This document shows positions 13,536-15,126 of a stretch of 22,716 nucleotides of DNA, piece by piece (positions within the stretch are counted from its first letter, which is position 1; each line of letters starts with the position of its first letter). Where the stretch lies: IMG/VR virus record IMGVR_UViG_3300033121_002248, one strand, 5' to 3'. This DNA comes from a virus. The translations under genes were made by a program, and so were the position numbers. The notes under the pieces are model-generated. The model saw only the letters and a program-made list of their open reading frames with translations. It did not search any database and was not told where the DNA came from.

Positions 13536-14072
13536 ATGTCGAAGGGAGAGATGTTCTCGCGTGCACTCGTACCACCCGCGGTGACCTACACCTGCAAGTG
13601 GCTCGCACGTCAGTCCGGCGTCCCCGTGCTCTGGGGAGCAGCCGAGGAGCACTGCATCGAAGTCCACCTCGCCGGGCGCGCGCGGAGACGCCACGCAGAA
13701 GTGCGCGACATCGACCTCGTCGTCGCCCTGCCGGAGAACGGCGCGCGCCCGGGCCGGGAGTGGGCGAACGAGCACATGCGCTTCGAGAGCGGCGGCGCCT
13801 ACGTGCAGCGGTGGAGGTACGCCGACACACTGCCGATCGAGCTCTACATCACCGACCACACCTCGAAGGGCGCGACGCTGCTCCACTGCACGGGCGGGGT
13901 GGAGTTCAACGTGTGGATGCGGCTGCGCGCCATCAAGCGGGGGATGCGCTTGTCGCAGTGGGGTCTGACACGCGGGGACGAGGTGGTGGCGAGTGTCCGC
14001 GAGCGCGACATCTTCCGCGCGCTCGACGTCCCCTTCGTGGACCCGTGGAGAAGGGACGAGCCGCCGGCATAA
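13536..14072 (+). CDS. minimal family X DNA polymerase (pol-beta-like palm and thumb only, 178 aa)
   Basis: [11 protein letters not shown] matches pol-beta GDMDVLL and ASFV Pol X [41 protein letters not shown] matches [47 protein letters not shown] matches DIFDYIQWKYREPKDR. Size and organisation are those of ASFV Pol X. The stop TAA lies inside motif copy 6. Confidence 0.75.
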   Translation: [178 protein letters not shown]

Positions 14073-14073
14073 G
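14066..14073 (+). promoter_or_regulatory. GGCATAAG motif copy 6
   Basis: CCGGCATAAGTCCAGAGGAGGGC lies 22 nt upstream of ATG 14096. Confidence 0.4.
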
Positions 14074-14095
14074 TCCAGAGGAGGGCTACAAAGCC

Positions 14096-14329
14096 ATGAA
14101 GACGTACCGATTCGAGATGGGCGCCACCGTGCGTGTGAAGTCGAGCGGCAAGGACCCGGGTGGCGTGGGCGTCGTGACCGCGCGGGAGAACAAGGAGGAC
14201 GACCGCGGGGAGCAGATCCTCTACCGAGTCCGCATCGAGGGCCACAAGGGGCAGGAGGACGGCGCCAAGGAGAAGGGCCGGCGCAACGACGGGTTCTGGT
14301 ACAAGGACGAGCTGGTCGGTGCCGCGTGA
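14096..14329 (+). CDS. small Lys/Gly-rich protein (77 aa)
   Basis: ATG 14096 follows AGAGGAGGG. Stop overlaps ATG 14329. Confidence 0.5.
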   Translation: MKTYRFEMGATVRVKSSGKDPGGVGVVTARENKEDDRGEQILYRVRIEGHKGQEDGAKEKGRRNDGFWYKDELVGAA

Positions 14330-15126
14330 TGCGCGTCGCCACCTGGAACGTCAACGGCCTGCGGGCGGTACTGCGCAGCGGCGCGCTCGAGCGCATGGTG
14401 GACGAGCTCCGCCCGCACATCCTGTGCCTGCAGGAGACCCGGGTGGACCTCGCCGCTGACGAAGAGACGCGGCGCAGGCTGCTGCACGCCACCGCCGGCG
14501 CACCGCAGTCGGTGTGGTTCTCGACGAACAGGCGCGAACCACACCGCGCCGGCGTGGCCATCGTCGGCCCCACCGCCCACGTCCGGGAGGCTACGGCGCG
14601 CCGCGACGACTGGCTCTACGAGGACGAGGGCCGCGTCGTCGCGGTGAGCGTGCAGGACGTGTTCACGCTCATGAGCGTCTACGCACCGAACACGGGGCGG
14701 TCCGAACGGGTCGCCTACAAGCAGATGTTCCTCGACCGCCTGGGGACCGAGGTCTCGTACCTGCGCAAGCACGAGCACCCCGTGGTGCTCGCAGGCGACT
14801 TCAACGTCGTCCGGGACGAGCTTGACGTCCACGACTGGGAGGGGACGCAGGGCAGCGCCGGCAACCGCGAGGAGGAGCGGGACGAGTGGCTGGCGTTCCT
14901 CGGGAGGCGGAACACGAACCACGTCGACGCCTGGCGCGAGTCGCACCCGGGGGAGCGGCAGTACACCTGGTGGGACATGCGCACGGCCGGCAGGAGGCGC
15001 GGCCGCGGGTGGCGCATCGACACCTTCGTCATCGACACCGCGCTCGTGCCGCTCACGGCCGAGTGCACCATCCACGACCACATCGAGGGCAGCGACCACT
15101 GCCCAGTGACACTCGACATCGAGTGA
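14329..15126 (+). CDS. xth: exodeoxyribonuclease III family AP endonuclease (EEP fold, 265 aa)
   Basis: MRVATWNVNGLRA..ILCLQETRV..GVAIV..VYAPNTG..LAGDFNVVRDELD..WRIDTFVI..SDHCPV aligns with E. coli Xth (FNINGLRAR..IGLQETKV..MGDMNISP..RIDLLLAS..SDHAPV), with all the catalytic motifs present. Confidence 0.9.
   Translation: MRVATWNVNGLRAVLRSGALERMVDELRPHILCLQETRVDLAADEETRRRLLHATAGAPQSVWFSTNRREPHRAGVAIVGPTAHVREATARRDDWLYEDEGRVVAVSVQDVFTLMSVYAPNTGRSERVAYKQMFLDRLGTEVSYLRKHEHPVVLAGDFNVVRDELDVHDWEGTQGSAGNREEERDEWLAFLGRRNTNHVDAWRESHPGERQYTWWDMRTAGRRRGRGWRIDTFVIDTALVPLTAECTIHDHIEGSDHCPVTLDIE

Follow-up and report, generated by a model that had tools for sequence, protein, structure and literature searches.

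Genes and promoter-like motifs at the locus

The window, by which we mean the whole 22,716-nucleotide stretch of DNA analysed here, carries three consecutive genes for a family X DNA polymerase, a small basic protein and an AP endonuclease. The trio and its accompanying features are as follows.

13498..13515, plus strand: promoter-like motif GGCATAAGTCAGGTAGCA, 21 nt 5' of the PolX start codon
13536..14072, plus strand: minimal family X DNA polymerase (PolX), 178 aa, assigned with Pfam, phmmer and hhalign
14066..14075, plus strand: second GGCATAAGTC copy, overlapping the PolX stop codon TAA, 20 nt 5' of the 77-aa gene
14096..14329, plus strand: basic 77-aa protein, 8.6 kDa, predicted as a Tudor/chromo/SH3-like beta-barrel with one helix
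14329..15126, plus strand: Xth, an exonuclease III / APE1-type AP endonuclease of 265 aa, assigned with TIGR00633, PF03372 and PDB matches
15137..15424, plus strand: 95-aa open reading frame directly after Xth, tentatively a member of the module

The three open reading frames lie on the plus strand at exactly the coordinates given in the preliminary description, and Shine-Dalgarno-like sequences are found at their start codons. The contig is phage-like, high in GC and of prokaryotic type, with Shine-Dalgarno sites, an SSB and a GH25 lysozyme. A DNA similarity search against 50,697 phage records gave no match, so the contig is not a known phage, and a scan of 185,579 species genomes found no relative and therefore yields no clue to a host or prophage. 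The neighbours of the trio are small genes of early or middle type, including nucleases, SSB and topoisomerase, and the setting is not a structural module. Among the surrounding nucleic-acid enzymes are SSB, GIY-YIG, SNase and GyrB, together with a weak match to a 2H-phosphoesterase-like protein. No Ku, LigD or recombinase gene is adjacent to the trio.

The preliminary description had placed all three genes downstream of a single promoter-motif copy, but the module contains two copies of the motif GGCATAAGT, at 13498 and 14066, the first of them in a divergent intergenic region after a minus-strand gene pair. Allowing at most one mismatch, GGCATAAGTC has four matches in total, all on the plus strand and all upstream of genes, against 0.41 expected, and none of 100 shuffles reached four. 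The core GGCATAAG..AGGTAGCA is invariant 5' of PolX in the related loci L001, L006 and L008, while the flanks diverge. The distant relatives L026 and L028 likewise have CATAAG copies upstream of genes; in L001, L005, L026 and L028 one such copy lies just 5' of the small gene and overlaps with the stop codon of the gene before it. The sigma-70 consensus is not found at the GGCATAAGTCAGGTAGCA motif. A scan of positions 12700-15700 detected no intrinsic terminators and a single weak sigma-70 promoter-like site, which lies inside the 3' end of Xth. Expression of the trio is probably driven by the two copies of this promoter-like motif, which would be phage-specific.

The polymerase, the AP endonuclease and the small protein

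The Pfam thumb family DNA_pol_B_thumb (PF14791) matches PolX residues 114-173 with 67.3 bits (cutoff 25, E 1e-18), spanning profile positions 1-62 of 63. The palm model PF14792 gives no match to the window PolX, though it does match relatives. In phmmer searches the best PDB match is the PolX of Thermus thermophilus (ttPolX; 1e-9, residues 43-175 against 183-316), with pol lambda and then African swine fever virus (ASFV) Pol X ranking next; bacterial PolX scores 41 bits and ASFV Pol X 19 bits (7e-3). With hhalign, residues 45-174 align to residues 35-173 of the 174 of ASFV Pol X with a probability of 97.8%. The length of the ASFV sequence in this comparison and the aligned ranges are in agreement with PDB entry 1jaj in phmmer. 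The NCBIfam model PRK08609 matches residues 41-174 at its positions 177-315, with 34.7 bits against an equivalog cutoff of 426. No Pfam model for the HhH, 8-kDa or fingers regions (PF14716, PF10391, HHH) matches PolX; by contrast, a full-length phage PolX (L012) does give such matches. As judged from its sequence, PolX consists of palm and thumb only, as had been claimed.

The triphosphate-binding motif G47-R-A-R50-R51 and the metal-binding motif D58-I-D60 align to GSARR...GDLD in ttPolX and to GSLRR...NDVD in ASFV Pol X. The metal ligands are D58, D60 and E102, and this triad is invariant in four close homologs. The expected catalytic carboxylates are present as far as the DxD is concerned, but at the position of pol beta D256 and ASFV D100 there is Glu102, acidic but not Asp. 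The minor-groove and dNTP residues T119, G120, N125 and R129 do not vary in an alignment of 41 sequences and hardly vary among 153 sequences, and G47, R50, R51, D58 and D60 are invariant or nearly so across the wider family. PolX thus keeps the equivalents of pol beta G179, R182, R183, D190, D192, T273, G274, N279 and R283, which are polymerase-specific residues beyond the nucleotidyltransferase (NTase) core. Residue 48 is Arg in the window and Ser in three close relatives, as is S180 in pol beta.

PolX is likely to be competent as a polymerase, but this is not assured, because the pol beta mutant equivalent to Glu102, D256E, is about 1000-fold less active, a loss of around three orders of magnitude (PMC5499815). 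The nearest outgroup proteins, P0006 and P0008, carry Asp at this position within an unchanged gene arrangement, which suggests that Asp and Glu are interchangeable there. An AlphaFold2 model built on a four-sequence alignment was poor (pLDDT 47.8), and the fold is therefore supported by the sequence alone. Pairwise NG86 dN/dS values of 0.2-0.5 indicate moderate constraint only and are unreliable at this codon bias (GC3 >85%). A GTG start at 13491 was rejected, as it would take in the conserved upstream motif; the ATG at 13536 aligns with the start codons of relatives. We also rejected an NTase of the MNT or antitoxin type: the protein has the thumb as well as the residues specific to polymerases, and its matches are confined to PolX families. 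The non-polymerase family envisaged as a refuting outcome in the preliminary description is indicated by none of the profiles.

Xth is a full-length Xth/APE1-type AP endonuclease of predicted activity with every catalytic motif in place, in line with the complete exonuclease III family enzyme described at the outset. It matches TIGR00633 (xth) over residues 1-264 of 265 with 179.3 bits (cutoff 99.05) and PF03372 over its full length with 84.3 bits (cutoff 24.5, E 1.3e-23), but scores less than the narrower TIGR00195 model requires (164.6 against 182.55). The E-values exclude chance for the family matches of both PolX and Xth. The closest PDB match of Xth is Arabidopsis ARP (1e-36), followed by Mth212, ExoA and APE1 at about 1e-32 to 1e-34; E. 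coli ExoIII is much more distant (6e-11). Its motifs WN7VNG, QE36T, Y118-x-x-N121, D158-x-N160, D230 and D256-H257 align with those of Arabidopsis ARP and B. subtilis ExoA and are kept in the L026 and L028 orthologs. Within WNVNG, LQETR, VYAPN, GDFN, WRID and SDHCP, the residues N7, E36, Y118, D158, N160, D230, D256 and H257 are what we take to be the equivalents of APE1 N68, E96, Y171, D210, N212, D283, D308 and H309.

The protein encoded between the two enzymes is basic, as the preliminary description had noted (12 Gly, 8 Lys, 8 Arg; pI 9.0). It is modelled confidently as a five-stranded small barrel of Tudor/chromo/SH3-like type with one helix, and its conserved motifs are DPGGxGxVT and GFWY. 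Its stop codon overlaps the start codon of Xth (TGATG). A word-indexed search returned the close clade only, and the deeper orthologs surfaced only through gene context. A profile search of PDB sequences found nothing, and a fold search of BFVD with the model returned only uncharacterised small phage proteins, none at E <=0.001.

Recurrence of the trio and comparison with known systems

The gene order PolX, small protein, Xth is kept in five diverged phage-like lineages, namely the window, L001-L004, L005-L008, L026/L027 and L028/L029, with GC contents of the trio loci from 57 to 69%. Across these loci identities range from 86 to 37% for PolX, from 71 to 35% for Xth and from 81 to 38% for the small protein. 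The trio persists amid differing neighbours, an MVP-like gene being lost in L005 and a 99-aa open reading frame inserted in L026, and the small gene abuts Xth in every case, overlapping it by 1 nt or lying 2-3 nt away from it. No Xth was found within 4-10 kb of 17 other PolX loci. Because the order recurs in five lineages and is absent from these 17 loci, the trio forms a selected unit, and its conservation supports the proposal that the three products would function together. A scan of metagenome contigs returned distant PolXs only, and a scan of viral contigs three distant loci.

ASFV possesses a base excision repair (BER) set of Pol X (pO174L, 174 aa), the AP endonuclease pE296R and a viral ligase, and had served as the model for the locus in the preliminary description. 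The analogy holds for the minimal format and for the virus-encoded AP endonuclease alongside the polymerase: PolX is here equally minimal, lacking both an 8-kDa domain and an HhH subdomain, and D58 and D60 align with ASFV D49 and D51. It is looser in other respects, since the sequence similarity is weak, the best solved relative is a bacterial PolX, the third carboxylate is Glu and not Asp100, no ligase is seen and a Tudor-like small protein is intercalated. In addition, pE296R belongs to the Endo IV family and not to ExoIII. The weak similarity to ASFV and the bacterial nearest solved relative make independent reduction and shared descent with ASFV equally likely explanations of the short format.

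The preliminary description considered a pairing of this kind to be rarely discussed for phages, but it is not unexplored. Giant viruses such as Phaeocystis globosa virus 16T and mimiviruses encode an Xth/APE1-like AP endonuclease, PolX and an NAD+ ligase, and like ASFV they possess PolX-based BER (PMC5537341). They thus combine, as here, an Xth/APE1-type nuclease and a family X polymerase in one virus genome. However, their PolXs have a full pol-beta-like core, are sometimes fused to ligase and serve in eukaryotic hosts, whereas the present PolX has palm and thumb only and the trio is tight and operon-like, with an extra small protein and no ligase seen nearby. Among phages, the SP15-like Yersinia phage YerA41 encodes a BER-like pathway of a PolA-UDG fusion, PolX and DNA ligase, and the repair of AP sites by PolX and ligase has been reconstituted in vitro (bioRxiv 10.1101/2025.03.26.645540). 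The use of a phage family X polymerase for AP-site repair and gap filling is a likeness to our locus and shows that the concept works in phages. The preprint describes SP15-like genomes as having no dedicated AP endonuclease, PolX itself cutting AP sites; they possess a ligase and a UDG domain; the window in contrast has a dedicated Xth, with no ligase or UDG detectable in 22.7 kb. The YerA41 PolX was not among the tblastn matches at E <1e-3.

Bacterial and archaeal PolXs (T. thermophilus, B. subtilis; PolXc plus PHP) share the GS/RxRR, DxD, TG and FN...R motifs with the window protein, but this is 178 aa long against about 570 aa and has no 8-kDa, HhH/fingers or PHP domains, the nuclease function coming from Xth in trans instead of a PHP domain. 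The format of the window PolX is shared by the minimal PolXs of uncultured phages (L011, L013-L021), which comprise palm and thumb in 150-195 aa; most of their contigs have structural genes of phage type or come from IMG/VR. None of them has an Xth or a Tudor-like gene in the examined flanks, and several lie directly upstream of a prohead protease and capsid module. Two of them instead have an ATP-dependent ligase 2-5 genes from the minimal PolX, and in phage IME392 such a ligase is adjacent to PolX. The minimal format is common in phage-like contigs; as late as 2017, ASFV Pol X was described as the sole exception known (PMC5537341).

The enzymes of the trio are familiar and their enzymology is itself unsurprising; what is new is their packaging. 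Studies of virus-encoded BER have dealt almost exclusively with ASFV and the giant viruses of eukaryotes, apart from one recent example in a phage, and the locus adds a phage-like clade in which a dedicated AP endonuclease comes together with a polymerase of ASFV size and a conserved small partner.

Proposed abasic-site repair and alternative roles

Given the observed family identities, catalytic residues, gene order and conservation, we lean towards the view that the trio is a virus-borne unit for abasic-site repair, performing the incision and resynthesis steps of BER. The Xth/APE1-type enzyme would cut the phage strand 5' of an abasic site, or trim a blocked 3' end, to leave a 3'-OH. The minimal Pol X, without the 8-kDa and helix-hairpin-helix DNA-binding domains, would then fill a gap of one or a few nucleotides, and the nick would be closed by a ligase that either the host or another part of the phage genome encodes. 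The repair intermediate would be handed from one enzyme to the other. The Tudor/SH3-like protein would be co-expressed with Xth through the overlapping codons and might be an accessory to one or both enzymes, for example in DNA binding or bridging. The abasic sites themselves might arise from spontaneous or oxidative damage, from uracil removal or from a glycosylase-type host defence.

Pfam searches for the other BER components, including the ligase that the preliminary description suggested seeking elsewhere in the genome, detected neither a ligase nor a DNA glycosylase or dRP-lyase domain in the genes of the 22.7-kb window, nor were these present in the precomputed Pfam matches for 20.5 kb of the 58-kb contig of L001; both sequences represent incomplete genomes. 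A UDG was likewise not detected within the sequenced 22.7 kb, and neither PolX nor its neighbours contain an 8-kDa or HHH_8 domain. The 5'-dRP left after Xth incision still needs removal, PolX being without the 8-kDa lyase domain.

A bolder suggestion, and in our opinion a doubtful one, is that the phage repair machine is split and has the 77-aa protein as its dedicated third subunit, which makes good in trans the losses of the truncated polymerase. It could bind DNA, gaps or 5' ends, or even remove the dRP by way of a lysine Schiff base; alternatively it might hold Xth and PolX together, the incised intermediate then being passed on directly. If so, family X polymerases and AP endonucleases would have an accessory factor of a kind not described before.

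The same genes could instead reverse damage inflicted by host immunity and not spontaneous damage, that is, abasic sites from defence glycosylases, uracil excision after dUTP-pool manipulation, or nicks and 3' blocks. Defence DNA glycosylases that introduce abasic sites into phage DNA are documented (PMC11078745), the YerA41 preprint casts phage PolX repair as a counter to a dU-based host attack (10.1101/2025.03.26.645540), and the early or middle type of the neighbouring genes is also in favour. However, the sequence contains nothing that separates anti-defence from housekeeping repair, we recognised no inhibitor-like or glycosylase-related gene nearby and the species genomes gave no host clue. 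We regard this origin of the damage as unlikely. Very unlikely, in our view, is a role in genome processing, with Xth as a 3'-5' exonuclease or RNase H-like enzyme and PolX filling in ends, nicks or primer gaps while DNA is replicated or recombined, its ends are matured or host DNA is scavenged. In favour of such a role, nucleic-acid enzymes abound among the neighbours, and members of the ExoIII family can also act as 3'-5' exonuclease, 3'-phosphatase and RNase H. But Xth is closest to dedicated AP endonucleases and far from E. coli ExoIII, the genes for Ku, LigD or a recombinase are missing from its immediate surroundings, and Xth together with a gap-filling family X polymerase is a BER signature in other viruses (PMC5537341).

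Another question is whether PolX with its Glu-containing triad polymerises at all, or whether its role is that of an AP lyase, of a binder of DNA ends or gaps, or of a scaffold for targeting Xth, with another polymerase performing the resynthesis. The activity loss in pol beta D256E points in this direction, and bacterial PolXs with altered triads are without polymerase activity (PMC9226535). Catalysis seems to be lost or changed often in the short format, 49 of 144 short PolX-like proteins having a DDN and 18 a DDE triad, and the title of Garcia-Escudero et al. 2003 gives ASFV Pol X an AP lyase activity. Nevertheless, all three triad positions are still acidic, and triads of Asp or Glu are counted as canonical by Prostova et al. 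(PMC9226535). The outgroup proteins have Asp in the same arrangement, and the invariant N125, R129, R50 and R51 make dNTP and template contacts which a mere scaffold would not need. A non-polymerase role seems quite unlikely, and we continue to favour gap filling by PolX within an abasic-site repair unit. The module is a source of compact mini-polymerases of natural origin, with DDE and DDD triads, for studies of structure and function and for biotechnology, as well as of a testable candidate accessory factor, and it might serve against host defences that rely on glycosylases or uracil.

The module may extend beyond Xth. The 95-aa open reading frame on its 3' side has no family match in profile searches and no detected homolog in L026 or L028. 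It is also found in L001-L003 and L005, with 54-60% identity, and L005 keeps it although the downstream MVP-like gene is missing there.

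Format of the polymerase and identity of the nuclease

The window (22.7 kb, GC about 69%, nearly all genes on the plus strand) is, by protein search, an entire JGI metagenome contig of 22,716 bp. All its features fit a piece of an uncultured, tailed-phage-like virus of high GC. We found no DNA similarity between it and 50,697 deposited phage genomes, and most ORFs other than the following have no family.

Genes of the window
7361-7759, SSB (Pfam)
9775-10029, plus strand, small stand-alone GIY-YIG protein, 84 aa (Pfam)
10750-12231, plus strand, 493-aa protein, 72% identical in the relative L001
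12811-13005 and 13027-13476, minus strand, gene pair conserved in relatives
13536-14072, PolX, 178 aa
14096-14329, small protein, 77 aa
14329-15126, Xth (exonuclease III/APE1-type AP endonuclease), 265 aa
15557-18154, plus strand, major-vault-protein-like (MVP-like) gene, 865 aa (Pfam MVP_shoulder, 1.7e-20, and a weak Band_7/SPFH match)
18272-18697, plus strand, 141-aa protein with sub-threshold 2H phosphoesterase/LigT-like matches (E 5e-4 to 5e-3)
19337-19786, plus strand, SNase-like nuclease (Pfam)
19787-20461, minus strand, GH25 lysozyme (Pfam)
21746 to window end, GyrB-type topoisomerase subunit (Pfam)

The ORFs of PolX, the small protein and Xth lie exactly where the preliminary description had placed them. 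PolX matches the Pfam family DNA_pol_B_thumb at residues 114-173 (E 1e-18), and the NCBIfam model of bacterial PolX aligns its residues 41-174 to 177-315. Its best relative in the PDB is the Thermus thermophilus PolX (E 1e-9; 43-175 against 183-316), ahead of D. radiodurans PolX, pol lambda and African swine fever virus (ASFV) Pol X (7e-3; 47-167 against 38-167). A profile of the clade aligns with ASFV Pol X at a probability of 97.8% (45-174 against 35-173 of 174 residues); the length and ranges of the ASFV sequence used agree with the PDB match. No 8-kDa, HhH or PHP domain was detected in the window PolX by the same tool that does reveal them in a full-length phage PolX (L012). With palm and thumb only, the protein therefore has the minimal ASFV format that had been proposed for it.

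Xth had been described as a complete exonuclease III family AP endonuclease, and this is confirmed at the sequence level. It scores 179 bits against the curated cutoff of 99 for the xth equivalog TIGR00633, matches PF03372 end to end and keeps all catalytic motifs (N7, E36, Y118, D158/N160, D230, D256/H257). It also matches PHROG 19169, annotated 'endonuclease' (3e-33). Its closest relatives are dedicated AP endonucleases, led by Arabidopsis ARP (1e-36) and then B. subtilis ExoA, Mth212 and human APE1 (about 1e-32 to 1e-34), with E. coli ExoIII a far weaker relative (6e-11).

Conservation of the module and its putative promoter motif

Close homologs of the window PolX are rare, with only four clusters among 5.8 billion proteins (61-86% identity). 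The contigs that carry them (L001-L008, the longest being 58 kb from a groundwater metagenome) keep the order PolX, 77-aa gene, Xth and a 95-aa ORF, as well as the 1-nt overlap of the small gene and Xth; in the window this is TGATG at 14327-14331, where the stop codon overlaps the start codon. The trio is retained even in L005, which lacks the MVP-like and 2H-phosphoesterase-like genes. The arrangement is likewise kept by the nearest outgroups in an exhaustive profile search: in L026/L027 (GC 63%) PolX is followed by a 99-aa ORF, a gene of 77 aa and an Exo_endo_phos gene of 259 aa, and in L028/L029 (GC 57-58%) by a gene of 72 aa and an Exo_endo_phos gene of 258 aa. Their Xth orthologs keep the catalytic motifs. 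At 17 other PolX loci that were examined, from isolated phages, IMG/VR and metagenomic contigs (L009-L025), no Xth or small-protein homolog was found within 4-10 kb of PolX. These results mark the trio as a unit under selection in one clade, not a chance neighbourhood.

The conserved small partner is the most interesting remaining point of the module. It is basic (pI 9.0; 12 Gly, 8 Lys, 8 Arg) and belongs to no sequence family, and its structure model, a Tudor/SH3-like barrel, is of high confidence (pLDDT 89.3). This fold is generic and has both DNA-binding and protein-binding members, so it fixes no single function. The outgroup homologs are 38-41% identical (E 2e-16 and 4e-14 in a small database) and share the motifs DPGGxGxVT and GFWY/GYWY with the window protein. 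The small protein always abuts Xth and probably has an accessory role, binding DNA or coupling the two enzymes.

PolX is the first plus-strand gene after the conserved minus-strand pair at 12811-13476, which creates a divergent intergenic region ahead of it. Besides this pair, only the lysozyme gene lies on the minus strand of the window. The 149-aa product of the pair, possibly a membrane protein, contains a run of Ala residues and a hydrophobic helix at its C-terminus. The preliminary description had placed all three module genes behind one promoter motif, but two copies are present.

Motif copies in the window
13498, plus strand, GGCATAAGTC, 28 nt before the PolX ATG
14066, plus strand, GGCATAAGTC, overlapping the PolX stop codon, 20 nt before the small gene
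2937 and 5570, plus strand, one-mismatch copies of GGCATAAGTC, upstream of gene starts
18246, plus strand, GTCATAAGT, related to GGCATAAGTC, upstream of a gene start

The count of four for GGCATAAGTC compares with 0.41 expected and was attained in none of 100 shuffles. Before PolX, three lineages keep the core GGCATAAG..AGGTAGCA unchanged within intergenic sequence that otherwise diverges. Copies of (G/T)CATAAG are again found upstream of genes in L026 and L028, which are distant relatives; one of these copies overlaps the stop codon of the gene that precedes the small-protein gene. Across the window clade and these relatives, (G/T)CATAAG(T) lies 20-55 nt before start codons, on the coding strand only, frequently overlapping the preceding gene's stop codon. 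It is a candidate clade-specific promoter or transcript-processing signal. Neither a sigma-70 consensus nor an intrinsic terminator was found in the module. The GGCATAAGTC motif fits a clade-specific promoter-like element of putative function, with one copy each for PolX and for the small-gene/Xth pair.

Likely polymerase activity and a putative repair role

The triphosphate motif of PolX (G47, R50, R51), its DxD motif (D58, D60) and T119, G120, N125 and R129, the equivalents of pol beta T273, G274, N279 and R283, are all present, and across the family they vary little or not at all. On sequence grounds this argues for a template-dependent polymerase over a generic nucleotidyltransferase. Residue 48, in the motif GSxRR, is Arg in the window and Ser in its three close relatives; pol beta also has Ser there (S180), where it contacts the triphosphate.

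While the DxD aspartates are present as had been expected, the third metal ligand is Glu102, which aligns with D243 of T. thermophilus PolX and D100 of ASFV Pol X and is invariant in the four close homologs. In a rival, less likely reading, PolX is catalytically impaired and works as a lyase or scaffold. The D256E change in pol beta, which lowers activity by about three orders of magnitude (PMC5499815), points that way, and bacterial PolXs with degraded triads are not polymerases (PMC9226535). The latter paper, however, counts Asp-or-Glu triads as canonical, and Asp occupies this position in the nearest outgroups that share the gene order. Weighing all of these points together, we consider it likely, though not assured, that the window PolX has polymerase activity. 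Among 144 short (145-200 aa) PolX-like proteins the third-Asp position holds Asp in 67, Asn in 49, Glu in 18 and another residue or a gap in 10, suggesting that many phage mini-PolX proteins may not be conventional polymerases.

On the best-supported reading, the trio would supply the virus with its own incision and resynthesis steps of base excision repair. Xth would incise 5' of an abasic site or clean a blocked 3' end, the mini-PolX would fill the short gap, and the nick would be sealed by a ligase not detected in the sequenced fragment. No ligase, glycosylase or dRP-lyase domain was found among the window genes or among the listed Pfam hits of a relative, which cover 20.5 kb. The 5'-dRP that Xth would leave has no evident remover. 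Two other rival readings, also less likely, are that the same chemistry is deployed as an anti-defence measure, or that the nuclease has genome-processing roles. The earlier interpretation of the pair as a repair module was largely right on the enzyme identities; the triad, the number of promoter copies and the claimed rarity needed correction.

Virus-encoded base excision repair is already known, and the trio would be a variation on it. ASFV has a minimal Pol X together with an AP endonuclease and a ligase, and giant viruses such as PgV-16T have Xth/APE1-like, PolX and ligase genes (PMC5537341). In phage YerA41, AP-site repair was reconstituted with PolX and ligase, and no dedicated AP endonuclease is encoded (2025 preprint, bioRxiv 10.1101/2025.03.26.645540). 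The phage PolXs of IME392 (252 aa, adjoining a ligase) and Carin-5 (289 aa) are longer enzymes. The module differs from all of these in joining, within one tight unit, an ASFV-sized DDE-triad polymerase to a dedicated nuclease of the ExoIII family and to a Tudor-like protein that is conserved.

As a format, the minimal PolX is not rare. The exhaustive profile search yielded 6125 relatives at E of 1e-3 or better; among its best hits and the close homologs, 79 of 153 sequences are 150-199 aa long, and 144 of the 252 collected PolX-like proteins have 145-200 aa and a Met start. Many minimal PolX genes lie on contigs of 20-106 kb, most with phage capsid-protease or other phage-type genes. According to a 2017 paper, ASFV Pol X alone was known to depart from the full architecture (PMC5537341), and a 2024 review mentions viral PolX only for ASFV and giant viruses.

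Neighbouring genes

The MVP-like gene sits just downstream of the trio. It is 73% identical in L001-L003, and full-length homologs (34% identity, 97-98% coverage) are found in huge uncultured phages: LR756500.1 (462 kb) and LR756501.1/LR756503.1 (735 kb). The SNase-like nuclease and the 141-aa 2H-phosphoesterase-like protein, whose gene is missing in L005, are further nucleic-acid enzymes near the module. In the 493-aa protein, an 81-nt (27-aa) unit occurs three times in tandem, at 11254, 11335 and 11416; the protein also has a weak, below-threshold match to the restriction-endonuclease fold Mrr_cat (E 0.0037).

In the 58-kb relative L001, the GyrB-like region (18659-20546, against 21746-22714 in the window) is split: the first about 20 residues are encoded at 18659-18718 and the remainder from 19662, with an HNH endonuclease ORF at 19169-19666 between them. 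Such a layout suggests an inserted intron or homing endonuclease, which the window lacks. At the position syntenic to the window's small GIY-YIG gene, L001 (5085-6221) has a 378-aa GIY-YIG protein and a fragment similar to the protein of the window. Homologs of the small GIY-YIG protein are found close to the trio in L026 and L028/L029 as well.
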